DNA of 55,508 nucleotides, counting the filler, from Jimgerdemannia flammicorona (taxonomy: Eukaryota), in NCBI GenBank assembly GCA_003990765.1. It is 2 parts of 2 records of this genome, joined end to end, with 100 filler letters (N's around TTAATTAATTAA, not from the genome) between each part and the next. Parts side by side here need not be neighbours in the genome. Positions count along the whole stretch, not along the records: positions 27,814 to 55,508 come from RBNJ01000613.1; 1 more part is not named here. One strand, written 5' to 3'. Made by a program: the position numbers and the translations under genes. Below, piece after piece: positions 8,731 through 55,381 of the stretch. How positions within the stretch are numbered: position 1 is the stretch's first letter; the number at the start of each line of letters is the position of its first letter. Under the pieces are notes generated by a model. The model ran no database searches and had not been told where the DNA came from. It saw nothing but the letters and a program-made list of their open reading frames with translations.

Positions 8731-9794
8731 ATCAGAAGAAGGGTTTCCTGAGGAACCACACTCTGAAGGAAGCTCCTCAGACCATCAAGGAACAAGAAAA
8801 TCTCATCCAACAAGTATATCAGAAAGCCCACTAAGGACAGACATGCAAAGAAGATAAGATTCGAAAACAACATCAACATTGGCCCCACCTCAGAACCCAA
8901 GTCCAAGACATCATTCAGAAATGTAACATCTGCCAGAAGTATCAAGAAAAGAAGAACTATCAAGCCCCTCTGCAACCGATTCCCCCACCCACTCACATCT
9001 TTCAAAGATGGGGAGTAGATGTAATTGGACCTCTACCAGTTACACCAAGAAGAAACAAATACATTCTTGTATTTGTGGAACATCTGAGCAAGTGGCCTGA
9101 GGCATTTCCAATGGATATCACAGATGCCTTAACTATTGTAGGCCTCCTCCATAGACTCACACTCAGATATGGACCCCCAGAAGAACTCATCTCTGACTGA
9201 GGCATAGAATTCATCAACAACATAATCATAAGTTATGCCCGAATTCACAAGATCCACCTCAAAAGGACCACATCATACCACCCCCAGACCAATGGCATGA
9301 TAGAGAGAATGAACTAGACCATTAAGAAAGAACTTGCCCGAGTCAATCCTACTAATTGGGACCTCTGCTTACCTGAGATCCTATGGGAAATTCGGAACAC
9401 CCCTGCTGTATCCACCAAACAAAAGCCATTTGAAATGATGTTTGCCAAGAGAACCAGAACTGCTGACCATGAGAATCTCAGAGACCTCCTCAAGAAGGCA
9501 GAACAGTTATATAATCAAGCCCAAGGACAGATTATCAAAGCCCAGGAAAGACAAAAGAAGTACTATAACCAAAAACAGACAGATCAGGAGATCAAGATTG
9601 GAGATCAAGTCCTAGTTTAGAGAAGCATGATTGAGACAAACTTTGCTGCCAAACTAGAACTGAAAAGGAAAGGACCTTATCTTGTACATAACATCAGAGG
9701 AACCAGTATCTATTTAAGAAGCATAGATGGATGAACCCTGAGAACACCAGTACACATCAATCACCTCAAGCTATATTTCCCCTCTACACTATGA
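8727..9794 (+). pseudogene. int: E1 integrase, separate ORF with its own ATG
   Basis: ATG at 8727 overlaps the RH-frame TGA (ATGA). HHCC (AH...CNIC), DVIGPLP, YHPQTNGMIERMN, KGPYLV. Stop at 9792-9794. Confidence 0.88.
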
Positions 9795-10305
9795 GCCAAA
9801 GGATTGATCAGTGCCTCCAGACATTGGTCCTCAGCTCCTTCTAAGCTCTATCAGTCCCTCTACCCCAATTTAGCCAAGTCAATGGAAGTCCCCTTCAAAG
9901 GATCCAATTCACCAGAAAAATCTTACCTTGGCCAGATGCCTACTACAAGTCTACCAACTGCAGGTCTATTATACAATCAGTGAACAATTGCAGAACCTCC
10001 CAGCCCCAGAACAGACCTACATCAGGAACACCACAGGTCTGACCAGAAGAGATACTACTGCTGCAGACAGACTATATACTATTTATAAATGAAATGTCAC
10101 AGCCCTGACACAGGCACAATTCTCCCTGAATAATATTTAAGGAATGAACTCTGTTACCTATTTGAGTATCATCAACTCTGTCAAAATCCTATTCTCTAAA
10201 GAAGAAGAAGAGCCCATAGAATGGAGTGACCCCAGTACAGATAATGAAGATGATGGAATAGGTATAGATACAGAAGCAGCCTATGCTTATTGGAATGATG
10301 ACTAA
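9791..10305 (+). pseudogene. E1 accessory ORF3, unknown function; one frameshift and internal stops
   Basis: ATG overlaps the integrase TGA. Manual translation gives ...LQVYYTISEQL...TAADRLYTIYK*NVTAL... plus an acidic tail EEEEPIEWSDPSTDNEDDG, similar in pattern to ORF3 of E2 and E4. Confidence 0.6.
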
Positions 10306-10344: not shown

Positions 10345-11471
10345 TGTGATAAACCAAAACATACCACTCAAATTATATCTTAACTGGATGACACAAATAA
10401 TTAGGCAAGATAATATGAACATACAGCATAGTAACCAGCAACCATTGCTGTGGAAAACTGTATAAATAGTCAGACATACCAGAAAGGGTCTGTTTACCTG
10501 TACAGACTCTGTACACCTGCCATAAGTAGCAGATCTATAGTTAGCCACATAGTAACCAGATATGTAGCAACCAACTTGTATAAATTACCCCAGAGACAAG
10601 AGTGAATAAATCTCAGTCCGAAAAGTCTGAAATTCAAAGCAAAAGACAAGTCTGCCTACTATACTTCGAGAGGAACTTTACAACCACTGCTAGGAGATTG
10701 TGAGCTTATTTCCCCTTTCCACTCTGATCTACTTTCTGATATAAAGAACAAGTTTGTTTTTGGTTCACTTGTCAGATAAGCCTGAAGATTTGCCACCTAA
10801 GTTCAAGGAGAACTTTGCCACCTTTGAGTAACTCGCCACTTAAGGAATAAGCTGCCATTTTCAAGAAGCCCACTAATTCAGGAGAATCTGTATCATCTGC
10901 TGTTTACAAGTTATCCACATTCCCAGAAGACTCATGCCATCTGAGTAGTATTCTCAGTTGAAGTTGAACCTGTGATATCCAAGTTATTTATTATTTCCAG
11001 TGAACCTGTTGCAGAAGAATCCATGCCATACAATTCCCAGTGAGCCAAATTGAGTTATCCGCCAAATTATCAGAACATCCACATAAGGAATCTGCCATAC
11101 TACACAGAGATTGTCACACAGAGATCATCATGCTATACAGAGATCATTGTACCAAGACCATCACTCAGAAATCACACACTTTTGGAAACCACTCATGCTA
11201 TACACAAATTCTGCCATTCCCAGTTGACCCAAGAAGGAAACCTGTTCACACATATACAAATCACTGCTATGCCCAGAGAACCATCCCAATTAGGAAATTG
11301 ATATACAAATTGCTTCCAGATATCTAGTTTTGACTATTATACTGCTAAACACCAAGGACCTCAGAAATCTTAGGACATTTTATTGCTTTTTGACAAAGTA
11401 ACTAAGGGCTCAAGCCAAACTACATCAACCCCCAACCTTGTAATTTGCCTCCATTGAGCCAGTACATTATA
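10345..11471 (+). repeat. E1 3' LTR (1127 bp)
   Basis: TGTGATAAACC...CATTATA, preceded by the PPT and followed by TSD ATAT. Confidence 0.95.
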
Positions 11472-13291
11472 ATATAAATATATAGTATCTGAAGTAATAA
11501 ACAGAACTCTTCTTTTTTCTTTCTCACTTATTTATAATAAAGATTATAAGCTCTACTAGTACTTAATAGCTAAGAAATATCTCTCTAATACTATATATTA
11601 TTCTATAATAAGATATTACAAAAGATCAATCAAGAAGCCAGTATAAGTATGCTAAGTACATATGTCAAATACAGCCACTAATATAGGTACTATAATGAGA
11701 AATATAGTTTTTACTATTATAAGTATAGCTAAGAGTTTTATCTCAATTTTCAATAGAAAAGAATATATTATTTAAGTATTCTATATAATAAATCTCCTTG
11801 ACAAATATGACTTAGTAGAGTATATAAAACTACAAGTACAAATTTAAGATTATAAACTATAAATAATTACTAAGTATTATATAAGATTATATTTACATTA
11901 GCAAATTTCTAAATAAAATTTATAATATACATTATAATAGCCTACAAGACATGAGAAGCTTTATATAATTATTATATATAAGTATCTATATAGAATTAAT
12001 TTCTCTGAAATCTCACTTATTTAATCTATAAATAAAGTCTAATAATAAAAAGAGTATCTATGAGTATACTAATTATATTGATAATCTGATAAATCAAGTA
12101 AATTCTCTCAGCATATCTATAGATTATATAGGAGATAAAGATAAGGTTTTATTACTTATAAGAGTTCTCTTAGAAGTATATAATATTGTCATTATAATCA
12201 TATTTAAGAATAGCAAGCTTACAGATTATACTTACATAATAATAAGCCTTATCAATGAAAGAATATTCTACCAATACTACAGATATAGTAAGAAATGTCA
12301 ATAAGAATAAAATTATAATTATTATTACTATAATAATATAGATATATATAAAATAATTGCTATTATATATATATAAGAAAAGAGAAGATAAAAATGAGTA
12401 TAGAAAGACTAGCATAGATATAATAAAGAGAAGTATGATAATATAAATATTCCTGAAACTAATAACAATATTGTGGTATATTCTTTATATAAGAAATATA
12501 TATAGATGATAGTTTTACTATCAAATCTACCAATCTACTATCTACTACTAGCTCTATCAGTTCTGTAAGTATGAGATCTACAAGCAGTTCTACCACTAAC
12601 CTAATATCTATAACCAGCTGGCAAAACACTTTTGGGATAATGAAAAGTAGTAATATTAATCTTACACCTACTGAATATACTAATACAGCTAATGATAATA
12701 ATGTCTGGCTTATAACTTCAGGAGTTATATAGTATATGACAGCATATAGGATATAGTTCTCTATATATGAGTCTTTCAAATATCCTATACCTATTAAACT
12801 AGGTAATAATAATATAACATATTCTTAAGAAAAAGGAAATGTAGAGATATATCTCTATAGAAATATTGTAGAGTCTGCTGGTATCTTTCTAGATATACTA
12901 TATACTCTGAAGATAGATAATAATCTTTTATCTATAGGAAAGATAATGATCTATAGTAATAAAGAAATATATATATTTAAATAGTATAATGGTCTATGAC
13001 TTAAATAATAATAAGTTGATAAGAACCTCAAAATGAGATAATATTTATATAATCAATAGTATACCAAATAGTACAGTAAATATCTCTTCATATATAACAA
13101 CTATACCTGATATATCTAATATATAATATTAATACTTAGGATAAGCCAGAAAAGAATAATTAGGAACAGATCTATAAAAGAATTATTAGAAATATATTCT
13201 GAGAGATTGTATAGGGGATAAAGCATTCTGGTAAATATTTGATAAATGATTAAAGTATACCTCTGGGATTCTAGATCTTATATATATATAT

Positions 13292-14823
13292 TGTCATATA
13301 GTGGTCACTGAGTCCTTCAAATATACCAGATTCTCTTTAAGGTGTATCTCTTAGACTAACTCAAGTTTGTTATAAGCAAGTTCTTATTAGAGTGCCTTCC
13401 CAAGGTCTTATAGTCCTCAAACTTCTTATCTTTAAACAATCTTGTTATCTCTTAGATTGCTTGCAAGGGATTATATATAAGTGAACCAGAACTGACTTTA
13501 TTTCAGAGGAAATAAGAGGGGTATTTATACAAAATATAATTCAATGGTTGCTAAGATATAAAGCTAAATATAAATTCTAATAACTAAAACTACTAAGTTC
13601 CAGGGTTGGCACTGATGGTTGTACAGGTTCAGGATACCAGTATAATTCAATATTATGTCAGAATACCGGTACTGGCATTATTCAGTATTATCTCAGAATG
13701 CTAGTGCTGGCATTATTCAGTGTAACATAATAAGGAACTTAGAGCAGAATGTTCAAGATCATGGGGGCTTCATTCTCATCATCACTGAAGGATATGAGAT
13801 CTGTGAATTTGTCATTGTCATGCAGGTTGCGCATCCTGTATACTTTACATACTTCATCATGCATTTCGCATATATCAAAATCATGTGAGATGATGTCATT
13901 GCCAATGATATCATCACATTCAGTGGCAGGAAGGAGGTCTGGGGCTCTCTAGTCTATGAGGTTCTCTTCCACAAAATAGGGAACAAATATGGCATCTGGG
14001 GGAGGTCTAACCTGGATGCTTGGGCCTTGGAATACTGAGATCAATCCTTGCAGGAATTGGTCTGGGTTGTTCTGAAGGATGGGATGCCAGAAGTCTTCTA
14101 CTTCATCACTATTGAGGGTGATAGTGGACTGGGCTTCTGTAGTCACCCTGGCTTCTAGTGTGTTGATATGGTGAGATGACAGGTCTCTGAAATCTGAGAC
14201 TCTAACATACTCTAAGTTGGGGATCAACCATGGTACATGTCTGAAGATCTGATAGATCTTCTTAGCTATCCTCATTTCGCATATATCCATGGGAGTAGTA
14301 TCTTATAGCTCTTGAGTACTGGCCTGTGGGAACTTCTGGCAGAGGAGGTTTCCTATTTCATACTCCTGCCACATTTGGAGTCATTCAGTAGCAATGGTAA
14401 TTCTGGTTTCCATTTTCCAGTAATAGAGAATATAGTGATAAGAGTCACCAGTACCCAGGTTGACACTTGGAGTCCTTCTTGAGCAGGTCCTCATAGCTCT
14501 TCTGATGTCTTGGAACATTCTTTCTTCAACTGAGGTGCCTTGGTGGTTCCTTGACCTTGAGGTTTGGTGGGCAGCAGGCATTTCATTTGTAGTAAGTCTT
14601 TGGGCTATTTTGGGATTGGTGGGTCTTATTGGTTGCTGTTACTATGGTTTCTTGATCCTTCTTTTATATTTCTCAAGATACTTATACTGTGGTCACAATG
14701 ACTCACAGTTGGTCATCATTGCTCATCTCATATACTATATGATCTCCTTATGCTCTGATCTGATAGCTTATGAGAAAAGGCTGTCTCCTGTGCTGATGTC
14801 ATCATTCTGAGGTCACCATTACA
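13292..14823 (-). repeat. E2 3' LTR (1532 bp) containing a disrupted copy of the LTR ORF (13739-14581)
   Basis: Colinear with 20521-22052. ORF fragments 14381-14581 and 13949-14290 match the 280-aa ORF. Minus-strand TATAAATA at ~13523-13530 and AATAAA at 13497-13502. Confidence 0.95.
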
Positions 14824-15187
14824 TCTTCCTCCTGAATAAGGATCTTCTTGAGTATCCTTATTCATTGGTCCAGTCCTGAAAAATTTGCTTATCTCATAAT
14901 CTCTGGCAAGGGGTTAAAAAGTGGTATTTATAGGTTGGCATCTTCTCTTTGTATTTTGGTATGATGGTGAAAGGTTGTTCCCTTCATATAGAGCAAGGGC
15001 CTGATTCTGATCTTGACCAATCAGTTGATGGTTCAAATTCCTCTGACTTCAAAAGTCTCATAGATGAGTAGTTGCCAGTACCATATCTCTTAGAGAATGG
15101 TCCAGACAGATAGCCTGCTGGTTATGGGACATGCTGTTATGATTCACAGACTAGAACCTCATAGACAGTCATCACATTTTGTTACTC

Positions 15188-20520: not shown

Positions 20521-22052
20521 TGTCACATAATAGTTGCTGAGTCCTTCAAATATGGCAGATTCTCTTCAAGATGTATCTCTTAGACTAACTCAAGTTTGTT
20601 ATAAGCAAGTTCTTATTGGAGTGCCTTCCCAAGGTCTTATAGTCCTCAAACTTCTTATCTTTAAACTCTCTTGTTATCTCTTAGATTGCTTGCAAGAGAT
20701 TATGTGTAAGTGAACCAGAACTGACTTTATTTTAGAGAAAATAAGAGGTATATTTGTACAAAATATAATTCAATAGTTGCTAAGATATAAAGCTAAATAT
20801 AAATTCCAATAACTAAAACTACTAAGTTCCAGGGTCAGCACTGATGGTTGTATAGGTTCAGAATGTTGATATAATTTAGTGTTATATCAGAATACCAGTG
20901 CTGGCATTATTCAGTATTACCTCAGAATGCCAGTACTGGTATTATTTGGTATAACATAACAAGGGACTTAGAGCAGAATGTTCAAGATCATAGGGGCTTC
21001 ATCCTCATCATTATTGAAGGAGATGAGATCTGTGAATTCATCATCATCATGAAGATCACACATCTCACATACTTTGCATTCTTTGTTACACATTTCACAT
21101 ATGTCAAAGTCATGCAGGATGACATCATCACCAATGACATCATTATATTTGATAACAGGAAGGAGGTCTGGGGCTCTCCAGTCTATGAGATTCTCTTCCA
21201 CAAAATAGGGAACAAATGTGGGGTCTTGGAGAGGTCTAACCCAGATGCTTGGGCCTTGGAATACTGAGATCAATCCTTGTAGAAATTGGTCTGGATTGTC
21301 CTGAAGGATGGGATGCCAGAAGTCTTCTACTTCATCACTATTGAGGGTGATAGTGGACTGGACTTTTGTAGCCACTCTGGCTTCTAGTGTATTGATATAG
21401 TGAGATAATAGGTCTCTGAAATCTGAGACTCTAACATACTTCAAGTTGGGGATTGACCATGGTACATGCCTGAAGATCTGATGGATCTTCTTAGCTGTTC
21501 TCATTTTGCATATATCCATGAGAGTGGCATCTTGTAGCTCTTGAATACTGGCCTGTGGGAACTCCCGGCAGAGGAGGTTTCCTATTTCATACTCCTGCCA
21601 CATTTGGAGGCATTTGGTAGCAATAGTGATTCTGGTTTCCATTTCATAGTGGTAGAGGATATAGTGATAAGAGTCACCAGTACCCAGGTTAACACTAAGA
21701 GTCCTTCTTGAGTGGGTCCTCATAGCTCTTCTGATGTCTTGGAACATTCTTTCTTCAACTGAGATGCCTTGGTGGTTCCTTAACCTTGAGATTTGGTAGG
21801 CAGCAGGCATTTTATTTATGGTAAGTCTTTGGGCTATTTTGGGATTGGTGGGTCTTGTTAGTTGCTGTTACTATAGTTTCTTGATTCTTCTTTTATATTT
21901 CTCAAGATACTCATACTGTAGTTACAATGACTCACAGTTGGTCATCATTGCTCATCTCATATACTATATGATCTCCTTATGCTCTGATCTGGTGGCTTGT
22001 GATGAAAGGCTATCTCCTATACTGATGTCATCATTCTGAGGTCACCATTACA
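20521..22052 (-). repeat. E2 5' LTR (1532 bp)
   Basis: Paired with 13292-14823; adjacent PBS and TSD. Confidence 0.95.
20968..21810 (-). CDS. Intact 280-aa LTR-encoded accessory protein (ORF3 family) with a C-terminal Cys cluster and acidic tail
   Basis: Uninterrupted ATG-to-TAA ORF wholly inside the LTR, in element sense. TATAAAA about 80 nt upstream (21891-21897). Homologous to E4 ORF3. Confidence 0.75.
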   Translation of the reverse strand: MPAAYQISRLRNHQGISVEERMFQDIRRAMRTHSRRTLSVNLGTGDSYHYILYHYEMETRITIATKCLQMWQEYEIGNLLCREFPQASIQELQDATLMDICKMRTAKKIHQIFRHVPWSIPNLKYVRVSDFRDLLSHYINTLEARVATKVQSTITLNSDEVEDFWHPILQDNPDQFLQGLISVFQGPSIWVRPLQDPTFVPYFVEENLIDWRAPDLLPVIKYNDVIGDDVILHDFDICEMCNKECKVCEMCDLHDDDEFTDLISFNNDEDEAPMILNILL

Positions 22053-25240: not shown

Positions 25241-25275
25241 CTTTCATCTGGCATGCTTCAATCAATTCATATTTC

Positions 25276-29995: not shown

Positions 29996-30029
29996 TCTTC
30001 AATAATCATAAGGGCAGAAGGCTTAGAAA

Positions 30030-33000
30030 TTTAACTAGGGTAGAGTAGTGACTGGTTCCAGATCTTGAGGTGTGACACATGAAAGACTGAGTGTACTCTC
30101 ATGATTTCAGGTAGCTTAAGACAGTAGGAGGATACAGAGACTTGTTCAGTGATCTTGAAAGGTCCAATATACTTGGGTTGGAACTTGTTTGAAGGGTAAT
30201 TGACTTGAGATTGTACATATCTTGAGATTCTCAGTAGATAGTAGGACTTGATCTTCAACAGTGTAAGTGACATCATGGTATTTCTTGTTAGTATACTTGG
30301 CTTAATTCTGTTGAGCCTTCTGAAGGTTCATAGTAGCAATCTTGAGTAGTTCATCCATCTTATCTGTAAGGTTCTTGGTTGTTAGGACTTATATTTGACT
30401 AGTTTTCTTGAAAGAAAATAGACTTGCAGGGGTCTCGGGATCTTAACCATAGAGTAACCAGAAAGGGAAAAGATCAGTAGATGATTGGACAGCATTGTTG
30501 TATGCAAACTCTGTATAAGTCAGGTAGATGTCTCAATTATCTTGCTCATAAAAAACATAGTTTCTAAGCATTTGTTCTAGAGTTCTATTCATGTGCTTGG
30601 TTTGTCCATCAGTTTGTAGATAAAAGGTAGTAGACATAGTCAATTGGGTTCTCAGAGTCTTGAAGAGGGTTTGCCAGAAGTGGTTGGTGAACTTGGGGTT
30701 GTGATTGCTAACAATTACTCATAGTAGACCATAGTAATAGAAGATGGACTTAAAAAAGATTCTTGCAATCTCAGGTGCAGTAGTATTGGTAGTGGTTGGT
30801 TTAGCAACCATAGTCTTGGTCAGGCAGTCAATGAATACAACAATAGCATCAGCATCAGATTGAGTTCATAGTAGTTGAGTTATAAAGTCTGTGGTGACTT
30901 GCTTGAACTTCTTAGTAGGAATTGGCAGTGGTTGTAGCAAACTGGCAAGCACTTGATTGGTAGACTTGTTGTACTAACATAGATCACAGCTGGCAATATA
31001 GTTCTTGATTTTCTTAACCATGTTTGGCCAATAGTAGTGGTGTTGGATGTTCTTAACAGTCTTCTCAATTCCCAGATAACCGACAAGAGGGGAGTTATGG
31101 TGTTCTTGCAAAATCTTATAGTGTAGGTTCATGTTTTCAGGTAGGTAGACTTGGTCTTAATGATAGATTAGATTGTTCTCAACAGTATATGTATCCTTGA
31201 GTTCATTCAAGAAAACTCTAGTAGCAACTGTATCTTCTTTGTAAGCTTGCCTGATTTGGTCTAGGAATTCTGATACCAAGGTAATTTGCATGATTGTGGT
31301 GAGGTCTGGGCACCTTGATAAAGCATCTGGTACTATAAATATCTTACCAGGCTTATAGATGATTGTTGGATTGAAGGTTTGAAGCTTAAGGCTCTACTTA
31401 GCTTGTAGACATAACAGAGTAGGTTGGGTATTGATGTACTTGAGAGATTGATGATCAGTAATGATATCAAACTCAACATCTTCTAGATAGTATTGCCAGT
31501 GATCTAGTGCATGTATTATTGCTAGTAGTTTCTTCTCATGAGTAGCTAGTTTTTGTTCAGCTGAGGCTAGCTTGTGGAACTCAAAAGCAATAGAGTGATG
31601 TCCTTTGCCATCATCTTGTAACTAGTGCTCCTAACGAGTCAATTTAATCCGGATTAGATTCGGATTGATTCGGATTGAATCCCATCCGAATCAACTCGGA
31701 TGGGATTCGAATCAACCATTGTTTTGATTTCCAAATTAGATAATTAAATGTTTACATCAATAACTCAATGAATAATCATCCAAATTTGATGATCTTGGTG
31801 TCATTTGAAAGCCCTTAATAAGGCCTATCTAATGATACCAAGAACATTGAAATCAGATCATGCGTTGCTGAGTTATGAAGGGAACCGTCTGAATCGCTGA
31901 TTTTGGAAATTCTTCGATTTGCCAATTTTGGAAATTTCATCAAATAGAACGTTTTCTTTAATATCTTGGCAACGCGCAATCCGATTTTAATGTTCTTGAT
32001 ATCATTAGAAAGGCCTTATTAAGGGCTTTCAAATGACACCAAGATCATCAAATTTGGATAATTATTCATCGAGTTATTGATGTAAACATTTAATTGTCCA
32101 ATTTGGAAATCAAAACAATGGTTGATTCGAATCCATCCAGATGGGATTCGAATCCAATCCGAGTTGATCCAGATGGGATTCGAATCCATCCGAATCCCAT
32201 CCGGATTGACTCGTTTGGAGCACTACTTGTAACAGGACTACTCTAATGGCAAAATTTGATATATCAGTGGTGACTATGAATTTTTGGCCTTGATCTGCAT
32301 TATGCAGGACTGGGGTATGGGTTAGGTAGTTCTTGAGTTCTTGAAAGGCTTATTGACAGAAGAGATCCCAGGTGTAAGATACATAGAGGTCTGAGTATGA
32401 GGTCTTCCTCATGAGATTAGTCAGTGGCTCAGCAATACCAGAGAAGTTTCTGACAAAGTGGTGATAATAGTCAGCTAGACCAAGGAAGGATTGGAGTTCA
32501 ATGAAATGGACTATTTTTCAATTGCTTCTATCTTGTGTGGGTCTACTTGAATTCCTTGTGCAGAGACAATGTGGCCAAGGTATTCAACTTGTTCTTTGAA
32601 GAATTTATACTTCTTGAGCTTGTCATAAAGCTTGTGTTTTTACAGGATCTCCAGGACTATTCGAATGTATTTGAGGTATTCTTCTTTAGTTATACTAAAG
32701 ATCAGGATGTTGTCAAGATATATCAATAGGAAAATAAATAGTTAGTCCTTAAATATCTTGTTCATCAGAGTCTGGAATATAGTGGGTGCATTGGTGTGAC
32801 CAAATACTAAGACCAGGAATTCATAGAGTCCAAAGGGGGTCATGAATGCAGTCTTGAGAATGTCTTCTGGCTTGATTTGAATCTGGTGGTATTCTGACAT
32901 GAGATCTAACTTAGTGAAGTACTTGGCATTCTTAAGAGTATTAAAGATTTGATTAATCAAGAATAATGGATAATAGTTCTTGATAGTGAGTTTGTTGAGT

Positions 33001-33260
33001 GCACAATAGTCTATATATATTCACAGAGTACCATTCTTCTTCTTGATGAATAAGACTGATAAGCCATAATGAGATTTGCTTGGCTGGATGACTCCTCATA
33101 TAAGTAGTTTTTCTAGTTCCTTCTTGACTGCTTCAATTTCAAGTGGTGACATATGGTATATGTGTTTCTTAGGTGGTACTGCTCCTGGGGTCAGTTCAAT
33201 TTCATGATCAACTTCTTGTATAGGTGGTAGGCTAGATAGCTTATCTGGAAAGATATCCTT
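30030..33260 (-). pseudogene. pol: E3 RT-RNase H-integrase, split by a MITE at 31623-32225
   Basis: KYFTKLDL, KTAFMTPFGLYEF, YLDNIL (from YLDD), EKKLLAII, HNSPLVGYLG, YYWPNM, YLQTDGQT, PKYIGPFKI, VHSVFHVSHLK. Confidence 0.92.
31623..32225. mobile_element. Young non-autonomous hAT-type MITE (603 bp), almost fully palindromic
   Basis: TIRs TAGTGCTCC.AACGAGTCAAT. Perfect 8-bp TSD CTTGTAAC (31615-31622 / 32226-32233). GATTC/GAATC subterminal repeats. Long inverted arms ~31705-31875 vs ~31960-32135. CpGs intact. Confidence 0.92.
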
Positions 33261-33469
33261 GAATTCCTCTAGCAATAGCTTGATGCTTTTATTGACTGAT
33301 AGTCTCTTGTCTTATTTCTTGGGGTGGATTATTACATATAATAAAAGCATACATTGCCTTCTTGAGTGCTTTCTTATACTGTATAGCTGACAGTATTGCA
33401 ATCTGGGCCTTGTTCATAGTCTTGTCTATCTTGATCATAATGTTAGCTCCATCTTGAAGTAAGGTGACT

Positions 33470-33790
33470 TCATTCTTATACCAATCAATGTCTGGATTGT
33501 GTTTCATAAGCCAGGGTTTTCCTAAGATCAGATTATGATCTCTTAGTGGTGCAATCTTGAAGTCTACTCATTCTCAATATTTCTGGATCTTGATGGGCAG
33601 TTTGGTGGCAATTGACTTGATGGGGTGCAGAGTATCATCTGCAGTAACTATACTATTGTTCTTGGGTGCAGACTTAGTGAGAATCTTGAGGTTTTTGATG
33701 AGATTCTGATTGATAAAGTTTCCTGCAGCTCTGCTGTCTATGAGTACTTGAACTTCTTTTCCTTTGACTAGGCCTTTGAAAATGAGTATA
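33470..33790 (-). pseudogene. E3 aspartic protease
   Basis: KGLVKGKEVQVLIDSRAAGNFI (decayed DSGA) and HNLILGKPWL. Confidence 0.9.
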
Positions 33791-33814
33791 GCTTGAGCTC
33801 AATTTTCACTAAGA

Positions 33815-34240
33815 CTTGCTGCTTGATCAGTACCACCAAAACCCTTTTGATCTTATTTGGTTTCAGGGAGTTCTTGGACTTCTATAATCTTGAGTTGACT
33901 GGCTTTTTTCAGAATCATTTACATGACTCAGTCTTCTTCTTTAACTATGTAGTCTTGATCCTTCTGGTTGATGAGTAAGACTTGAACTTATCCTTGAAAG
34001 TCTGAGTCAATGACACCAGTGCCTACATCTAAATGATGTTTGACACTGAGTCCTGATTGTTGTGTAATTCTAGTATAATATCCTTCAGGACATTGGACTG
34101 TAATTCCAGTAGGCACCAGAGTATGGCTCTTATCTGGAATAGTAACTTGTTTGAATACATGTAGGTCAAGACCAATGGCTCCTTCTGTTTGATATTGAGG
34201 GACCTGGGCCTTTGAATGAAGCTTCTTGATCTTGAGCTCA
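33815..34240 (-). pseudogene. dut: E3 dUTPase, upstream of the protease
   Basis: PQYQTEGAIGLDL, LVPTGI, QQSGLSVKH, GTGVIDSDFQG, ETK*DQKGFGGTD. Confidence 0.92.
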
Positions 34241-34289
34241 AGTTGACTGATAGTAGGATTGATAGGTGTGTCCTTGGATAACACAGTAA

Positions 34290-35210
34290 CTGGTCTTGAG
34301 AGTTCACTAGTCTTTCTAGGACATTTGATTGCAATGTGTCCTGTTTGGTGACAGAAGAAACAAGCTCCAGATTTCTTCAGGCAGTCCTTTTCTTCAGGGG
34401 TAAGCTTGGTGTTCTTTTTGTTCATGGTGTCTAAGTCCATTGGTGCTGGGCCAACTATCCTTAGTTGGTTTCTATAGTGGTTCTTGAAGTAGTTCTTTTT
34501 GTGGCATTCTGGTTTGAAGCAGTTGTCAAAGGTGATGATATCAAATCTATCAGCAATTCTCATAGCTTTATCAAGAGTTTTGGGCTCTTTCAGCTCAACC
34601 TTGACTCATGTGTTTCTCTTCAGACCTCAGACATAGCAGTCTATCTTTTTATTCTCAGATACCACTGATAGCTCAAGTAGAATTGACAAGAATTGTATAT
34701 TGTAGACTTAAGTTACTTGATGTTTGCTAGCTTGTCCCTGGCTAGCTTGGTAGCATTAGCAGACTTGAACTACTTATGAAGAGCTCTCTTGAAAGCTTCC
34801 CAATCTCTGATTCATACATATATGAGTATATAGATATAACCATGATATGATTGTATCACAAGATAGCTATATTTCCTCAGAAAAGTATAGTAGTGAATTG
34901 GACTTACATGTCATCTTCCATTCTTGTGAGCTTAAAGTATTAATCCAATTAGAAGGTCCATGTATCTGTAGATAGTCCTCCTCAATGGCCATCAAAGGTG
35001 TCTGGCTTGAGTGGCTTGAAACTGACTAGTGCTATAGCAGGATGTGATATATCTATAGTTTGTATTTTCTGCTATTCTAGTTGTACTTGAAGTTCTTGGA
35101 TTTGATGGGCCATAGTATTGATTATATCTTCTATGTTGAGTTGTAATCCTCTTACTTCTTCTGTAGCAGAGGGGTCTAACTGGTAGACTGACTCTTCACA
35201 GCTCATTTTG
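34290..35210 (-). pseudogene. gag: E3 gag
   Basis: KPLKPDTFDG, GPAPMDLD, CFFCHQTGHIAIKC knuckle. Confidence 0.88.
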
Positions 35211-36969
35211 GGTTCATGTGACTTATTGTGACTGGTTTCTGTATTCATGTGAGATTTCTTAATAAGGCAAGGTATAATAATACTACTACTACTAAGTGTA
35301 ATAGTTCTAGTTTCTTTAAGAGAAAGTGGCTAAATCTGAAAGTTCTGGTTGACCTAAAGTAGCTCAAAGAGATACTTAAAGGTTCAAGTATTTTCAAAGG
35401 ATTTCTGGGAGAAAATATTCTAAGCTTTATTTAAGTAGAGAACAAGGATATTTATATATGATCTGAAAGAAAGATCCAGAAGAATCTTGGAAAGAAAGAG
35501 AAATGCCAAGAAATAGGTTCTCAGCAAAGCTGACTAATACTATTCTATAATATTCTAAAAGGTTCCATGATTAGCTAAGATAAGATACTTAGCACCAAGG
35601 AAAGACAAGAATGTTCTAGTGATATCTGGGTACTGAGAGAAGGTTTCTAAGCAAGTAGAAGGTACCAGAACATAGTAGAATGTTCAAGAAATGATAAGAA
35701 AAGACTGACTAAAAGATATGAAAAATATACTAAGACTAAATATGACTGTGAAATTGTTATAATATTTGTATAAATAATTACTATAAGACTATAGAGATAC
35801 ATATTAGTCATTGAAAAAAAGCAGATAAAAAGAGTTCACAATAGTGTTCTATAATATAGAGTGAGATGGTTTAGATTTCCTAGTCAGGATACATACAAAC
35901 AATATAAGGCATTATCCTACTGATATTTATAAATACTGATATGTGATATAGTTATATATAAAATTGTTCTCATTATGATCAAGTATATTATTATTAAAGA
36001 TACCATTTTTTATACAGAATAGATATTATTGGTAAATAATTTTACTATGATAACATAGATCTATATATAGAAAGCTTACATCACTATTTTCTATTTATAA
36101 TAGTAGTATATATCATATGATTTTATATATATTCATCTATATTATCTAATATTTAATATTATCAATCATAGTATATATCAATAGTGTGAGGCTACTTTTA
36201 ATATCAAATTTAATATATATCATTATCAGAGATATATATTAAATTTTATATAATATAATGATCACAAGTTCACTAATAACAATAGATCAAGACTGTAGAC
36301 CTAATTCTTGTTATATATTATATTATGATTACATATTCTCAATTTGATCATAATTTATACTTTATGAAGTATTTTTGAAATATTGGAAAAAAGAGATGCA
36401 ATTTGATATTGAAAATAGCCTTATATATAAAACTCTCACTGATATACTAGAACTACTAATGCAATAAATACTGATATATAATATAGTTATATATAACATT
36501 TTTCTCATTGTAATCAAGTATATATATCATTATTAAAGTATCTGTTAATTATTGTAAGTAACTTTGATACTAACTTACCATTTATCATATAGAGTAGACA
36601 TTATTGGCAAATGCTTTTACTATAATAATATAGATCTATATATAGATAAGACTATGATACTAGGTAGAGAATAATACCCAAATAGTGATATTTACAATAA
36701 GTGATATATGTTATATGATTTTTATTCTTTATATTATCTAGTATTAGTATTTAATATCATCAATCTTAGTATAGCTCTCTTTTTTCATATTCTGATGTGA
36801 TTAAATTTAAATACAATTTAAACTTGATATAATTCAGTTAATATATAAGGTATATATAATAATAAATATATTATCTTACAATATATCCTCATACTATAAA
36901 ACTCCTACTGATATTTTTTTTATATACTAAAAATATAGATATAATAAATACTAATATATGATATATGTA

Positions 36970-39114
36970 TATACTGTTGAGAACAATCTGATCTATTATT
37001 AAGACCAAGTCTATCTATCTAAAAACATAAATCTATATTATAAGATTTTGCAAGAACATCATGACTCCCCTCTTGCAATCACTTGGGAATCAAGAAGACT
37101 GTCAAGAACATCCAATACCACTACTATTGGCCAAGTATGGTCAAAGAAATCAAGAACTGTATTACTAGCTATAATCTATACTAGTACAATAAGTCTACCA
37201 ACTAAGCACTAGCCAGTTTGCTATAACCACTGCCAATTCCCACTAAGAAATTCAAGCAAGTTACTATGGACTTTGTAACTCAACTACCATGAACCCAATC
37301 TAGTACTAATGCTATTATCATATTTGTTGACTACCTGACTAAGACTATAGTTACTGAACCAACTACTACCAATGCTACTATACCTGAGATTGCAAGAATC
37401 TTCTTCAAGTCTATCTTCTGTCACTATGGCCTACTATGAGTAATTGTTAGTAATTATGATCCCAAGTTCACCAGTCACTTCTGGCAAACTCTCTTTAAGA
37501 CCCTGAGAATCCAATTGGCTATGTTTACTGCCTTCTATCCACAAACTGATGGACAGATCAAGTGCATAAACAGAACTCTAGAACAAATGCTTAGAAACTA
37601 TGTTTTTTATAAGTAAGATAATTGAGATCATTATCTGACTTATGTAGAGTTTATATACAACAATTCTGTCCAATTATCTACTAGTCTTTCTCCTTTCTGG
37701 TTACTCCACAGTCAAGATCCCAAGACCTCTACAAGTCTATTCTCTTTTAAGAAAAGCAGTCAAATATAAGTCTCTACTGCTAAGAGCCTTACAGATAAAA
37801 TGAACAAACTACTCAAGATTGCTACCATAAATCTTCAGAAGGCTCAACAGTATCAAGCCAAGTATGTTGACAAGAAATGCCATGATATCACTTACACTAT
37901 TAGAGATTAAGTCTTACTGTCTACCAAAAATCTCAAGATACAATCTCAAGTCAACTGCCCTTCAAACAAGTTTCAACCTAAGTATATTGGACCTTTTAAG
38001 ATTACTGAATAAGTCTCTGTATCCTCCTATCACCTCAAGCTACCTGAAACCATAAGAGTATACCCAGTCTTTCATATATTATATCTCAAGACCTGGAACC
38101 AGTCACTGCTTTATTCTGGTTGAATTCTTAAGCCATCTATCTCTATGATTATTGAAGACCATATTGAGTATAAAGCTGAGAAATTTTTTAACAAATGAAT
38201 CCACTATTACTGTCTTGAATACCTAGTCAAGTGGATGGACTATCCTAAATATGATACTATCTGGAAACTGCTGGTCAACCTTAAGAACTCTCAATATCTA
38301 GTTCAAAACTTCAAGGCAAAATGCATTGCCCAATCCCTATAGTGACTTTCTTGGATTATTGATGATCTATGGCAATAATCAGTGCCTTATATATTAGAAG
38401 TTTACTTTGGGATCCAGGAACTAGTAGAAAATTTAATGAATAAGAAGTCTATTGAAATAAAGCTACTAGCTGAGTTCAAACCTCTCTCAGTTGATTAGTT
38501 TGATAATAGGCACTCTGTTTTACATATATGAGAATGGCCAATTCTCATCAATATATCAATATAAGTTTGAGAAATTTTGGTTAAGTATATCTAGTCTTGT
38601 ATTATCTAAGAACTCAACAAGGATGTTAGTTCTTAAGAAGGGAGGAATATAACAATTTCACAGTCATATTTAGTTTTAGTATATTTTCATATCTTTTAGT
38701 TAGTCTTTTCTTATTATTTCTTAAATATTCTACTATGTTTTGCTATCTTCTACTTGCTTAGAAACCTTCTTTTAGTGCTCAGACATCACTAGAATACTCT
38801 TGTCTTTCCTTAGTAGTACTAAGTATCTTGTCTTAGCTAGTCATAGAACCTTTTGAAATATTGTAGAACCATATTAGTCAGCTTTACTAAAAACCTATTT
38901 CTTGGCATTTTTCTTTCTTTCCAAGATCACTCTAGATCTTTCTTTCAGATTATATATAAATATCTTTATTCTCTATCTAAATAAAGCTCAGAATATTTTC
39001 TTTCAAAAATCCTTCAAGAATACTTAAACCTTTAAGTATCTCTTTGAGCTACTTTAGGCCAACTAGAACTTTCAGATTTAGCTGCTTCCTCTTAAAGAAA
39101 CTAGAACCATTATA
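36970..39114 (+). mobile_element. 5'-truncated E3-family copy (integrase, chromodomain, PPT, 3' LTR 38648-39114)
   Basis: Reverse complement of 29047-~31190. YLVKWMDYP chromodomain and PPT AAGAAGGGAGGAA. Confidence 0.92.
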
Positions 39115-39857
39115 ATAAGTAACTTCAGCTCATCAAGTGATATAATTTTATAATTTAGTGAAATATTCACAAAACATTTATATTATAAAAAATCACTAAC
39201 AACAATAGATTGAGACTATAGATCTAATCCTTGTTATAGTATTATATCATTATACTTTATAAAAGTATTTTTAAATATTGAAAAAAAAGAATATAATTTG
39301 ATATTAAATACTATAAAACTGAAACCACTAATGTAATAAATACTAATATGTAATATAGTTACATATAAGATTTTTCAAGTATCTGTTAATTATTATAAGT
39401 GACTTCAGCTTATCAGATGATATAATCTTATAATTTAGTGAAATATTCACAAAATGTTTATATCATTATATTGAGAAATATAGTATATTATGAAAATCAA
39501 ATCTGCTGATTCAATTTTCATAATATACTATATTTTCCAACATAATGATATATATTAGATTTATATATAATATAATAATTACAAGTTTAAAAATAACATC
39601 ATAAAAAATTACTAACAACAATAGATTAAAACTATAGAACCAATTCTTATTATAATATTATATTACCATACTTCATAGAAGTATTTTGAAATATTGGAAA
39701 AAAGGAATACAATTTGATATTGAATACTATAAAACTAAAATCACTAATGTAATAAATACTAATATGTAATATAGTTACATGTAAAATATTTCTCATATTA
39801 TTAAAGATATAAGTATCTATTAATCATTATAAGTGACTTCAACTCATCAGATGATAT

Positions 39858-42732: not shown

Positions 42733-43347
42733 ACCATCATTATAAACCAAAAAGTAATATAAATGTAGTTTCTATAGTAATATATAGTGTGATGAGTAAC
42801 AGGATTATACTGCTGAATTTATAAATTAACTATTGTAACATAGCGGACACTTACTCTTGAAAGTATGTCAGACTTCTATATCTTGAAAACTTGACTGTTC
42901 TGACTCTCGCAGAGTCTCTTGAAGTAGCAGGGGAGGGTGGGTGAGTTTGAAGTGTATCTGCCCACAGGCTTACTAGTTTCTTTACTATCTCTTTGCTTTT
43001 GAACTATTTCGATCTGAGGTTTATTCACTCAAAGATACTGGGTTATTTATACAAGTTTGCTAGCTATGAGAGGGTGGCTAAGTAATAAATGAGTCATTTG
43101 GACTTTGTCGAAACATTTGGATGATGTCTAAATGCTATACTAAATCGGGGTATTTGATTTGGATAATGTCTAAAATTTAGACAATATCTAAGAAATTAGA
43201 CAATGTCAAAATTGAGGACTGCTAACTATAATGCTATACTACTTTGGGAATGGGTGTGATCAAGTGTCTATTCCCTATTTCCTTCTTCCGAATCTGGCTG
43301 TACCATCACAACTTCCTCCTGAATGGATGGTCTCATCTCTGAGGCAT

Positions 43348-43809
43348 CTATTCAAACTCCCAGGCTTCAATGGTCTGTATGGTCTTGTACTGTGCGATTT
43401 GCTGCATAACTGTTTCCCAATGATGTCTTCTCACTTTCTCGAAGTCAGTAGGGGTTACTCCTCTCAGGTGGTCTATTGCTGCTTCATCTTCTCGGAATAG
43501 CTTGTGGATCCTTTTGGCAATAGTGATCTGTGAGTGGGAGAGTTGACACTCGGCAATCTAGTCCTCCTTAGTCTTTGCTGGATCCTGATTGAGCACCTGT
43601 CCAAGCTTGAAGTACTCTTGAAATTCTGCCCGATATTGATAGGCTCTGAAGTGTGAAATCCGAGAGAGATGAGTCTGCACAATACTCTGAATATCCTCAT
43701 AGTATAGCTCTATGGTCAGAGGCTCAGTGGTGTGCTATTGTCTTTTGATGGCTCTTTGGGCAGCACTAGTGATCTTGAGTACCATCATGGTACTTTTGTT
43801 ACTGGCCAT
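43348..43809 (-). pseudogene. E4 accessory ORF3 (~153 aa, two internal TAG stops)
   Basis: Manual translation MASNKSTMMVLKITSAAQRAIKRQ*...EFQEYFKLGQVL...IAKRIHKLFREDEAAIDHLRGVTPTDFEKVRRHHWETV. The ATG overlaps the end of integrase. Confidence 0.8.
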
Positions 43810-49068: not shown

Positions 49069-49561
49069 TGGGCACCAAGTTGTAACGTAGCGGATGCTTA
49101 CTCTTGAAAGTACATCGGACTTCTATATCTTGAAAACTTGACTGTTCTGACTCTCACAGAGTCTCTTGAAGTGGCAGGGGAGGGTGGGTGAGTTCGAAGT
49201 GTATCTGCCCACAGGCTTACTAGTTCCTTTGCTATCTCTTTGCTTTTGAACTATTTCGATCTGAGGTTTATTCACTTGAAGATACTGGGTTATTTATACA
49301 AGTTTGCTAGCTATGAGAGGGTGGCTAAGTAATAAATGAGTCATTTGGACTTTGTCGAAACATTTGGACGATGTCTAAATGCTATACTAAATCGGGGTAT
49401 TCGATTTGGATAATGTCTAAAATTTAGACAATGTCTAAGAAATTAGATAATGTCAAAATTGAGGACTGCTAACTATAATGCTATACTACTTTGGGAATGG
49501 GTGCGATCAAGTGTCTATTCCCTATTTCCTTCTTCCGAATCTGGCTGTACTGTCACACTAT

Positions 49562-50365: not shown

Positions 50366-51127
50366 TATAAGGAGTTTTTTTTTTTTATTATAAAATGAGT
50401 AGATAATAGTGGAAGAGTTTAGAGCAAGATGTAATACTATTATGGCAGATATGAAGGTTAGTGGTAAAAGGTCAAGTGGTAGAAAACAATAAGCTTATGT
50501 GAATTTTCATGATGGAATAAGGAAGCAGAATAAAGTGTTTTCTGAAGCAAGGTACAATAGATCTGCAACCCACTCACAGCACCACAATATGTGGTGGTCT
50601 TTATTCAAATTTGAGAACAAAGTTCAGATAAACAAAGACATGGATCTAACCCCAGAATTCTGGAATCAGAATAGTGCATAAGTACCCAGACCTTGCTCTG
50701 ATCCAAACAAAGATCAGAATCAGGCTTCATTGATCTACACATATGATAGACCATTAAAAACCTAATATAGAAACAATTGGGAAAAGGTACCAGTCATATG
50801 ATCTAATGTTACATATACATAAACAATACTAAAAATGGAACTAAACCAATGACTGTCATATGTTATCACATAATTGTTACTTATAGGTTTAAAAACCTAA
50901 AAATCATTAGCACCTGAAGGTGCAGGCATTAGGCCTAGAGCCTTATAACTGAAGCAGAGTAGAGCCTCAGTATTAGAGCAAGTGAAGTGAGCAGAGATAG
51001 ATAGGTGTCATAGAGTATAGGTATGCAGGCATCAGGTCTAGAGCCTCATGCCAGAGGTTGTTCAGTGATTTTTTGCATTTTTAAATATCACATGGCATGT
51101 ATGGGTGGTGCGGCCTTCAAGGAGGAC

Positions 51128-53100
51128 TTAGAGTGAAGCTGGTATTTGAGACAGCATTAAGAATAGTAAAACCATTCTTCTAGGCAATGATTGGTCATTG
51201 AGTGGTTGCAGGGAAACTAAAACAAAGAAAAGCAGTACATAGAGTCTTGTCAGGCTGTTGATGTAGCCATCAGGCCATGTCATATTAGATGACAAGCAAT
51301 GAGGGAGGGTAGAGTAGAGAATAGGGGGGTGGAAAATAAGGAGAGGGGTGAGAAGTAAAGTATGGACATCAAGCCAATCAACCAAACTCAATTGAGCAGT
51401 TACAACATCAATAGAGTATCCTTTCCTGTGAATCAGGAATTTAGCCAGAGATCAATACTCATCAAGTCAGTCATAGTGAAAAGAGCAGAGGAGTAATAGG
51501 CAGTAGGCCTTGTTTACAATATATTGATGGAGCATCTTCCTAGGATGATTGCTCAACCAGTCAACAAACTGAATACTATGTGGAAACTTAGCAAAACAGC
51601 TTGTATAGAATGGTGTGATCTGGATTTCCAGGTCCAGGTAGTGGTACAGTCTGGCAGACAAGACTTCCTATTTGATATGATGGTACAAGAGATAAATGGT
51701 ACCAAAGATTGCAGCCAAGTCCATGATCACAGGCATAAAGACAATTAAATCATCAATGTACTGATGGAACTTTAGTCTGGCTTCAATAGCTCGGCTCAGT
51801 GAATGGTCAGGTGCTTATAAGATATACAACTCATGAGTAAAACCAACAAGGTTGGTGAGATCCAGACACAATTTGTCCCTATAGCAATACCAGATATAGA
51901 GCAGAAGGAACCAATGGCAGATGTAAATGTTATACAGGTCATAACTATGCAGACAAGATTAAGAATGACTTTGAGTAGCAAAGAGCCAGAGGGGAAAGTC
52001 ATGGTCAACAGAAAGGTGAGGCAGTTGATATACTCATCTAATGTGATCCTGGTGTAGAATATGGCAAAATCCCCAGTAACAATGAAGGAACAAGCTGATA
52101 CATCTAGGTAATCTGATTGAACTAGTTGTAATAGTTCAAGCATATCATGTAGAGGTAAATAATACAAATAACCCACATTAAGGTGCAGATGAGCCAACCA
52201 CAGGTAGAGAAAGTGAGATAGGAAATGCAAAATCTCAGTCATGAAAGAGTTAAAAGTATCAATGATAGAGTACCATACCACTCATGCCTCTTTGTGTACC
52301 TTGAGCAGTGCATAAAATATGGACAACTTGCAATTATTGGGCTCTATGAGGTGTTCCCAAATCAGCATATAATTAGAATCACCAATACAGAACTCAAGTA
52401 GACTAAGCAGGTCTAGCCTCACCAATTCCTTAATATCATCAATTGTTAAGAAATCATTCATATATACAGGATCATGAAGGAGGGACCGAAGACCATTGAG
52501 ATACAGAGCATGTAGAATTATGGCAAACCCCAGATTTTTGTCAGTAAGACAGATAGTAAAGTCAGTATGAGTGTAGACATCTTTGAGAAGATGTCAGAAC
52601 TCCTTCAGTACAAGTGTGCCAGATACATTCATCATGGATCAGACAGCTTAATTAAGCATGGCACTCATATGAAGCATGATTTGCATATTTTCCATATAGT
52701 GTGGCAGTTGCTATTTAGATGGCACCTAGGTGGAGATCTCTGAGATATCATTGGGATTACCCATAGAGGTCCAGAAGGTGGCAAGGTCAAGATGCTGTTA
52801 GAATGACAACAACAAAATCAGATTAATAGTACTGTTCATCAAAGCCGACCCAGGGAGAACAAACTTAGGGCCAAAGTTCAGCATATACATAAGCTTAGGA
52901 GTAAGTCAAGGTGGAGGTATATCAGTAACAAAGCTCTTCTCAGTAAACATTTGAAACTAAGGGATGAAAAACTGACTTAAGCAAGAACCAGAAAGAGAAG
53001 ACATAAAGGCAAAATCCTGAATTGATGTTGAGACTGCTACCCCATGTAGAATGGGGACATCAGGGCCAAACCATGCTGCTGGGAAGTCATATAAGACTTC
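51128..53100 (-). pseudogene. Penelope-type reverse transcriptase
   Basis: LNFGPKFV (~52870), TDKNLG (~52535), VTGDFAIFYTRI, GIAIGTNC (from GIAMGT), QYIDD (51749-51763), YLDLEI...WLSNHP...RKGY thumb region. Confidence 0.88.
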
Positions 53101-53156: not shown

Positions 53157-54278
53157 TCAGACAACATGACATTTGGCAGTAGTACACTTGTTGCACTGCA
53201 GCACAAATACTCTGGCAGTACTCTTAGATAAGTAGCTCAAAGTCAACAAGTGGCTGGTCCTGGTAGAAGTGGAAGAAACAGATGGGGAAGGTGAAGCCTG
53301 ATATGCTTGCTTGACTCCTTTTACAGAACTCACTAATGTGGCAGAGGATAGGGGGCAAGGACCCTGGTGGGCCTTTGTAGGCACACCAAGGTGTCTAGAA
53401 CAGCTGTGGCAGTTTGATATAGTAGAGGCCAAAGTTGCACTCACCCCCTTAGCCTTTCCCGCAGCCCCTGCAGGCATGGTGATAGAGGATCGGGGAGTGG
53501 GGATACTCTTTTTCAATCAGGTAGAACTGGTAGCAGCAGAAGTAAATGTGCATTTAGCACCCAGAGTAACAACCTCAGGGTGCTTCTCAAGCTCCTCAAC
53601 TACAGCTTTGTGGGCAGTAGCAGAAATCCCATCTTGCAGAGATGAGGATGCAGGGATAGTCAGGCAGATGGCAGTGGCAGCAGCTTTGGCAGCAGTGGTG
53701 GTGGCAAGATGACAAGATTGATACATAATAATGTTATATCCTTAGAGGAGGAACAAGGTAGTCTTTGCTCATTCAGAGGCAGAAATAATGTAAACATTCT
53801 TATACAGTCCCTGAGTGACATCTTCAGGAATCCTGAAAAAATTGAGAGCTTCAGACGAGATACTCATGGTCTTGTCAATTTTAGCATACTGGTCCTTAGC
53901 ATGCTGGATGGCAGTGACATTATCAGTCATAGCAGCCTCAACCATGGCCATGGTGTGGCACTTGGCTTCTGCAGAAGTAGTAGCAAGGGCAGTACCATGC
54001 TGCTCCTCAGGAAGGACAGCAATTATAGCAGCAATCTTCTTGGAAGGAGTAAACTTCCAGTCAGCAACTTGGGCTCACAAAAAGTTGACATGGCATTCCT
54101 TTATGGCAGCAACCTCAATGGCAGAAAGCACTCCAGTACAAGCAGTACAGAAGAGAGAGGAGGGGATCTTGGCAGACATGGCAGTGACATAGGTGGCCAG
54201 GTTGTCAAACTCTATCAAATTGGTGAAAGAAGCAGAGGAGATGGCAGCATCACTATCTACATTCATATTATCTGTCAT
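53157..54278 (-). pseudogene. PLE upstream ORF (Ala-rich helical N-terminus, Ser/Pro/basic C-terminus)
   Basis: Same-frame pieces 54075-54278, 53769-53951, 53517-53726 and 53157-53516, separated by point stops. The ATG lies immediately inside the upstream pseudo-LTR. Confidence 0.7.
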
Positions 54279-55346
54279 ATTGTATATTATAAAATGAGTA
54301 GATAATAGTAGAAGAGTTTAGAGCAAGATGTGATACTTTTATAGTGGATATAAAGGTCAGCAGTAAAAGGTCAAGCAGTAGAAAACAATAAGCTTATATA
54401 AATTTTCATAATGGAATAAGGAAGTGGAATAAAGTGTTTTCTGAAGCAAGATACAATAAATCTGCAATCCACTCATGGCACCATAATATGTGGTGGTCTT
54501 TATTCAAATTTGAGAACAAAGTTCAGATAAACAAAGACACAGATCTAACCCCAGAATTCCGGAATCAAAATAGTGTATAAGTATCCAGACCTTGCCCTGA
54601 TCCAAACAAAGGTCTGAATCAGGCTTCATTGATCTACATACATGATAGGCTATTAAAAACCCAATATAGAAACAATCAGGAAAAGGTACTAGTCATATGA
54701 TCTAATGTTACACATATACAAACAATGCTAAAAACGGAACTAGACCAATGACTGTCATGTGTCATCACATGATTGTCACTTATAGGTTTAAAAATGCAAA
54801 AAATCACTGGACAACCTCTGGCATAAGGCTCTAGGCCTGATGTCTGCATACCTATACTCTATGATGCCTGTCTACCTCTGCTTACTTCACTCACTCTGGT
54901 GCCGAGGCTCTACTCTGCTCTGGTCACAAGGCTCTAGGCCTGATGCCTGCACCTTTGAGTACTGATGACTTTTAGGGATTTAAACCTATAAGTGACAATC
55001 ATGTGATGACATATGACAGTCATTAGTCTAGTTCCATTTTTAGTATCATTTGTATATATATAACATTAGATCACATAACTGGTATTTTTTCCCAATTATT
55101 TCTATATTGGGTTTTTAATGACCTGTTATGTATATAGATTGATGAAGTCTGATTCAGACCTTTGTTTAGATTGGGGCAAGGTCTGGGTACTTATGCACCA
55201 TTCTGATTCCAGAATTCTGGAGTTAGATTCATATCTTTGTTTATCTAAACTTTGTTCTCAAATTTGAATAAAGACTAATATATATTATAGTACCATGAGC
55301 GGGTTGTAGATCTATTGTACCTTGTTTCAGAAAACACTTTATTCTG

Positions 55347-55347
<1 letters not shown>

Positions 55348-55381
<34 letters not shown>

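Follow-up and report, generated by a model that had tools for sequence, protein, structure and literature searches.

A shared ORF3 family in dUTPase-bearing Ty3/gypsy elements of Jimgerdemannia flammicorona, lying in one of them inside the LTR

A coding gene within the LTR is the arrangement that makes the LTRs of MMTV and the lentiviruses special: sag of MMTV lies wholly in U3, and lentiviral nef overlaps U3. At the 3′ end of other retroviruses, foamy virus Tas/Bel1 and HTLV Tax are encoded as transactivators with acidic activation domains. For LTR retrotransposons, a report on dUTPase-bearing elements of bdelloid rotifers describes diverse types of ORF3 (env, GDSL, DEDDy, coiled-coil and TM) and mentions dUTPase in basidiomycete elements (PMC5408684). 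Here we describe ORF3s of three elements, E1, E2 and E4, in a window of 55,508 nucleotides, the window being the whole stretch of J. flammicorona DNA that was analysed. As in the rotifer elements, ORF3 is an extra sense-strand ORF that follows pol and precedes the 3′ LTR in a dUTPase-bearing element, family-specific and partly helical or coiled-coil, and is here non-env; unlike the rotifer ORF3s, it matches none of the types named there, and one family spans three lineages and once lies inside the LTR (PMC5408684). The E2 ORF3 resembles sag and nef in that it follows the polypurine tract (PPT), precedes the TATA box and is present in both LTRs, in an LTR of 1533 bp as against 478 bp in E4, and it differs from them in that E2 is an env-less retrotransposon whose sister lineage E4 has the gene outside the LTR. 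With regard to a relation to Sag or Nef, no retroviral accessory Pfam family was matched by any of 19 members of the family. Being a sense-strand ORF after pol that is kept among copies and has a coding signature, ORF3 has the features by which an ORF3 of LTR retrotransposons is recognised, and exact-phrase searches of open-access text found neither this ORF3 family nor an LTR-embedded ORF in fungal Ty3/gypsy elements. The family is an unnamed one of a known sort of accessory gene, the retrotransposon ORF3, and is unusual for the variant that lies in U3.

Pfam matches and sequence identify E1, E2 and E4 as Ty3/gypsy elements with the order gag(zf-CCHC)-PR-dUTPase-RT-RNaseH-IN, with LTRs having TG..CA ends, a PBS and a PPT. 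The features of E4 are the following.

43348..43809, minus strand: E4 ORF3, 153 codons and a stop codon; scores 146.8 bits with the profile that excludes window sequences
43799..43809, minus strand: overlap of the E4 pol stop and ORF3 start (ATG 43809-43807, pol TAA 43801-43799), read from the sequence
43302..43324, minus strand: polypurine tract of E4 with the LTR start; the junction has a homologue in E2 (23 bp, 91%)
42833..43310, minus strand: E4 3′ LTR, 478 bp, with the TATA box at LTR position 260
49080..49557, minus strand: E4 5′ LTR, 95.8% identical to the E4 3′ LTR in the window self-comparison

The TG..CA-ended LTRs of E4 are accompanied by a 4-bp target duplication, and the PBS adjoins the 5′ LTR as the PPT adjoins the 3′ LTR. 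Translation of 43351-43809 (minus strand) gives 153 residues from Met; the natural stop (43348-43350) comes next, 17 nt before the PPT. The frame is interrupted by TAG at residues 25 and 84, and both positions are tryptophan in the alignment of intact relatives. All of the E4 strings quoted in the preliminary description (QEYFKLGQVL, IAKRIHKLFR and AIDHLRGVTPTDF) occur in this translation. In E2, the ORF is found in both LTRs.

20968..21810, minus strand: E2 ORF3, 5′ LTR copy, without stops over 280 codons counted from Met; in U3, at LTR positions 243-1085; 252.6 bits
13739..14581, minus strand: E2 ORF3, 3′ LTR copy, with 3 in-frame stops; 245.6 bits
20520..22052, minus strand: E2 5′ LTR, 1533 bp
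13291..14823, minus strand: E2 3′ LTR, 1533 bp; TATA box at about 13523-13529 (LTR position 1295)
14815..14837, minus strand: polypurine tract and start of the LTR in E2, a junction located upstream of ORF3

The open frame of the 5′ LTR copy (20971-21867, minus strand) extends over 299 codons, 280 of them counted from the Met at 21810, and it contains the quoted E2 strings QEYEIGNLL, TAKKIHQIFR and SIPNLKYVRVSDF. The two LTRs of E2 are 89.3% identical in the window self-comparison. Of the differences across the ORF3 segment between the LTR copies at 13291-14823 and 20520-22052, 92 are transitions and 8 are transversions, a strong bias that suggests, from the sequence differences, deamination-type decay (methylation- or RIP-like). 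The features of E1 are the following.

9791..10305, plus strand: E1 ORF3, with one frameshift near 9905-9915 and three internal stops; 13.0 bits, iE 2e-5
10347..11462, plus strand: E1 3′ LTR, starting 41 nt past the ORF3 stop
2114-3466: E1 5′ LTR, from the window self-comparison

The E1 strings QVYYTISEQL and AADRLYTIYK were also found, in the frame that is entered after the shift near 9905-9915, and the natural stop of the E1 ORF is at 10303-10305.

The preliminary description had proposed that these ORFs form one shared family downstream of integrase, and BLASTP, profile comparison and an HMM search of the window all bear this out. The E4 and E2 ORF3s match each other by BLASTP (E 6e-6, 30/129 identical), and hhalign of E4-type and E2-type profiles scored 45.2 (E 2.4e-6, 111 columns), where the maximum of 100 column shuffles was 26.0. 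An HMM made from 17 members from outside the window was run on the six-frame translation of the window, with stops as X (111 kb translated). It matched only 43342-43788(-), 21001-21756(-), 13793-14530(-) and 9946-10119(+), and the sole further row was noise at iE 6. The window holds four copies of ORF3, all in decayed elements and open only in the 5′ LTR of E2. The place of E1 in the family is less immediate. It is unlikely, in our estimate, that the gene is common to E2 and E4 only and that the ORF at the 3′ end of E1 is unrelated and similar by chance, as could be argued from the absence of significant pairwise BLASTP matches of the E1 ORF3 to that of E4 or E2, from the score of 14.6 (not significant) of E1-type against the E2-type profile alone, and from the 13.0 bits of the window copy; the E1-type against the E4-type profile alone is marginal (28.3, E 6.7e-4). 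Against this, E1-type compared with a broad profile of 19 sequences scored 45.8-50.1 by hhalign (E about 4e-7; 3.9e-7 for intact E1-type relatives), relative to a maximum of 18.9 in 100 column shuffles, the E1 locus is the sole extra HMM match in the 111 kb and has the equivalent position and strand, and the acidic tail and the overlap with the pol stop are alike. Because E1-type matches the broad profile while being weak against the single types, E1 is a member of the family by way of bridging sequences. The profile comparison of the three types is accordingly significant for E4 with E2, and for E1 with the broad profile, and homology of ORF3 across E1, E2 and E4 beyond chance is confirmed at the level of sequence comparison. 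We consider it likely that ORF3 is a genuine accessory gene, passed on vertically within a chromodomain-less dUTPase Ty3/gypsy group, that it is located at the 3′ end and that it encodes a soluble helical protein.

The three elements had been described as different ones, with different LTRs and PBSs, which is overstated, as only in E1 do the PBS and the LTR differ. E2 and E4 share 67.5% nucleotide identity over 5.4 kb and 183/281 identical RT residues (65%), and their PBS, PPT/LTR-start junction, LTR end, and TATA box with downstream motif are common and homologous. Judged by these comparisons, E2 and E4 are sister lineages, and the three elements are therefore not independent. Between E2 and E4, ORF3 diverges much faster than RT (23% vs 65% identity), and the order of ORF3 divergence, in which E2 and E4 are closer and E1 is farther, is also the order of pol.

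A fourth dUTPase Ty3/gypsy element lies in the window at 29047-35759 (minus strand), with LTRs at 29047-29508 and 35297-35759. This element is a chromovirus, having Chromo at 29824-30018 (Pfam E 1e-10) and dUTPase within 33988-34605, and it gave no ORF3 match. The domain order of E1, E2 and E4 is that of chromoviruses, this one included, up to integrase; beyond this point the chromovirus of the window has a chromodomain and no ORF3, whereas E1, E2 and E4 have ORF3 and no Pfam match to Chromo in any frame. Chromodomain and ORF3 show what looks like a complementary pattern, in a set of only four elements. At 36969-39121 (plus strand), the 3′ part of the chromovirus with its LTR (29046-31190) recurs in inverted orientation as a partial copy, 84.7% identical, which includes a decayed chromodomain region. 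Elsewhere in the window, 50386-50906 and 54285-54806 are a pair of LTR-like repeats (89.8%), a third copy of which lies inverted at 54787-55349, and the ORFs 51796-52281 and 53646-54305 inside this pair had no Pfam match. Long poly-T runs at 25272-25301, 27790-27819 and 55349-55378 head a repeat family of roughly 2.5 kb (25296-26477 vs 27814-28998, 74%). There is a run of N at about 27790-27813, and the whole window contains 88 N.

We further analyzed the position of ORF3 relative to the LTR boundary. LTR mapping agrees with the earlier placement of the gene: E1 and E4 have it internally, before the PPT, and E2 has it within the LTR. The distance from the TATA box to the LTR end is about 220-240 bp in both E2 and E4, the TATA box being at position 260 of 478 in the one LTR and 1295 of 1533 in the other. 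The U3 of E2 is about 1 kb longer than that of E4, and the extra sequence holds ORF3 between the common LTR start and the TATA box. By these sequence landmarks, the arrangement of a U3-encoded gene, with a complete ORF from LTR start to TATA box in both LTRs, is seen in E2 only, where the PPT directly precedes LTR position 1. The RNAs of E4 and E2 would be nearly collinear, the difference being that the PPT/LTR-start module stands after ORF3 in E4 (and E1) and before it in E2. Of the earlier proposal that the E2 LTR grew by absorbing the gene, the anatomical part fits, and the direction of the change is set by E1 as the one outgroup in a comparison of three taxa, which makes internal ORF3 the simpler ancestral state. 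On these sequence features, absorption of ORF3 by the E2 LTR is a reasonable reading. Movement of the polypurine tract alone was rejected, given that the tract and the first LTR bases are conserved together. A search past the stop of the E2 ORF3 for a relic of the junction gave only an insignificant resemblance.

In E1 and E4, the start of ORF3 overlaps the end of pol: the E1 Met at 9791 overlaps the pol TGA (9792-9794) as ATGA, and the E4 ATG is 8 nt ahead of the pol TAA. Stop/start overlaps of such layout are typical of termination-reinitiation coupling in viruses. The AUG of the E2 ORF3 is located about 620 nt beyond the pol stop, past the PPT, so that its translation cannot be coupled to that of pol in the way the overlaps suggest for E1 and E4, and it would need a message of its own; as part of U3, the E2 ORF3 is copied into both LTRs. 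An ORF that in E4 and E1 starts exactly where pol ends, its start overlapping the pol stop, and that occupies the place of the chromodomain in the co-resident chromovirus, might be taken for a C-terminal extension of integrase made via frameshifting or read-through, and not for a separate gene. We regard such an extension as improbable, since the E2 ORF3 lies at this distance from pol, inside the LTR and with its own Met, since Met-initiated N-termini are conserved in the independently called relatives of all three types, and since the ORF3 members had no Pfam integrase-C or chromo match.

Intact relatives were found for each type. There are eight for the E4 type, including P0010 (153 aa, 79% identity to the E4 ORF3), five for the E2 type, with best-segment identity of 53-77% and with 44-81% identity to P0002 in the alignment (P0006 and P0040, for example, have 271-322 aa), and three for the E1 type, of 137-172 aa (P0028 and P0029, 171-172 aa). 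An exhaustive profile search of 1.84 billion representative proteins gave 13 matches at E<=1e-3, eight of them at <=1e-10, with a maximum length of 342 aa. All 18 listed members of 10 clusters came from JGI/IMG or ENA (metagenome) and none from NCBI/UniRef. Viral contigs scanned with the E2-type and E4-type alignments gave 0 confirmed loci, and the ESM Atlas gave only unspecific 'hypothetical protein' clusters. A metagenome scan with the E2-type alignment A4 identified one locus, L001, of 1345 bp and without upstream context, which has 69% nucleotide identity to the E2 LTR and an intact ORF of 322 codons; the ORF stop is followed about 240 bp later by an E2/E4-like TATA motif.

The comparison of the E2 ORF3 with L001 provides a measure of constraint. 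The pN/pS was 0.38-0.45 in frame and 0.89-1.34 in the two shifted frames, the excess of third-position differences was seen in frame 0 only, and the Jukes-Cantor dN/dS was 0.15-0.21 with dS saturated. The in-frame pN/pS between the two E2 LTRs, intended as the neutral control, was 0.39, a weak control because 92 of the 100 differences are transitions, which lower the in-frame pN/pS. The earlier suggestion of an old, selected gene is upheld by the intact relatives at 43-79% identity and by the in-frame pN/pS. It seems very unlikely to us that ORF3 is a host gene captured independently in each lineage, or a host family that resembles an ORF of transposable elements. Genomic context is known for L001 alone, and the five distant matches P0023-P0027 are without context, which leaves room for this reading; against it stand the few matches in the 1.84 billion proteins with no NCBI/UniRef source among the 18 listed members, and the agreement of the ORF3 divergence order with pol. 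A free-standing host family was not found, with genomic context readable for that one relative.

To characterize the protein, structures were predicted for two types. The AF2 model of the E4 type has a mean pLDDT of 79.2, with helices at residues 33-75, 83-88, 92-105, 109-114, 120-125 and 128-152. In the E2-type model, residues 47-150 have pLDDT 85-97 and the helices span 47-83, 89-96, 100-113, 117-122, 128-133 and 136-149; after this core come an extra conserved region and a disordered tail (221-280, pLDDT below 50). The order of helices is identical in the two models, which are independent and were made from different alignments. When two copies were modelled by complex prediction, run without the family alignment, the verdict supported binding (score 0.47 vs 0.00 for the best control), with a contact agreement of at least 87% between runs and a partner pLDDT of at least 65. 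The interface is formed by the long conserved helix (residues 40-76) in antiparallel pairing. In benchmarks made of solved proteins, the same mark was reached by 21/30 one-chain pairs and 0/23 single chains of microbial origin, and by 17/29 pairs (but only 1/7 of those without an older solved relative) and 0/30 single chains of eukaryotic origin. The model supports self-association of the ORF3 protein.

In 12 of 12 members, the maximum of Kyte-Doolittle hydropathy (19-residue mean) was <=1.08, i.e., there is no membrane segment, and in the same number the C-terminal 35 residues contain more D+E than K+R, often with W, F or Y. The low hydropathy, together with the lack of any Pfam env match, agrees with the earlier view that the protein is not env; nor was a Pfam match to an integrase C-terminal domain found in ORF3 members. 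No Pfam family is common to the members (0/19), the best singleton being at E 0.008. A sequence profile search of the PDB gave E>=3 at best, Foldseek gave nothing at E<=1e-3 in the PDB (E4 model) or BFVD (E2 model), and the VIA fold search had best Z of 5.1 and 4.6, for one unrelated chain in both. HTH-type rows in the fold search were scattered and low (sigma factor, MerR, PadR and Mu C; Z 2.6-3.8), and HTH_Tnp_Mu_2 was one Pfam singleton at E 0.031. In view of the lack of a Pfam, PDB or fold match, a DNA-binding reading draws on these weak leads. That the region is non-coding, a conserved cis RNA or DNA element such as a 3′ UTR or U3 enhancer, or else a degenerate env, is least probable of all, for, apart from its location in 3′ UTR/U3, where cis elements reside, the third-position excess is confined to frame 0, relatives as distant as 43% identity still have open frames of 153-345 codons, the AF2 cores are confident and concordant, and a hydrophobic segment as in env is absent.

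With ORF3 as a vertically inherited accessory gene, its product would be a small soluble protein of 125-345 aa, in which a long self-pairing helix is followed by a compact bundle of short helices and then by a variable acidic tail; the bundle would surround the conserved basic helix A-[KR]-R-I-[HY]-x-[IL]-F. The gene would always be at the 3′ end of the element RNA. Its protein may arise in E1 and E4 through termination-reinitiation at the end of pol; in E2 it may come from a separate or subgenomic message. As to function, we tentatively suggest, on the predicted structure, that the protein could be a trans regulator or adaptor of its own element, acting on the expression or integration of that element, with a dimeric module binding nucleic acid or chromatin and an acidic effector tail. 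By analogy, ORF3 resembles Tas/Bel1 and Tax in being small and 3′-terminal, in a helical domain that is predicted to pair with itself, and in a disordered tail that is acidic and studded with aromatic residues; no fold match was obtained for it, and the likeness, drawn from predicted features, is no more than an analogy. The fast divergence of ORF3 would also fit a host-interaction factor. It is a more speculative, and to us doubtful, proposition that the E2 lineage moved ORF3 across the PPT into U3, such that every LTR, solo LTRs included, would be a protein gene, and that the product would be a dimeric transactivator, or a host-defence or chromatin adaptor that replaces the role of the chromodomain.

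Extra ORFs are the route by which LTR retrotransposons gain new biology, such as env, targeting and regulation, and most extra ORFs of the fungal type lack annotation, as genes are called only after repeats have been masked. The ORF3 family described here has no name, Pfam entry or known fold, and it is constrained across at least three lineages. Its presence on both sides of one conserved PPT/LTR-start junction is an example of the tripling of an LTR by uptake of a gene. If ORF3 is a transactivator or adaptor, regulation like that of complex retroviruses would have arisen in env-less retrotransposons; and if the transfer into U3 is true together with the transactivator or adaptor reading, the E2 gene would be a retrotransposon counterpart of the regulatory genes of the 'complex retroviruses'.
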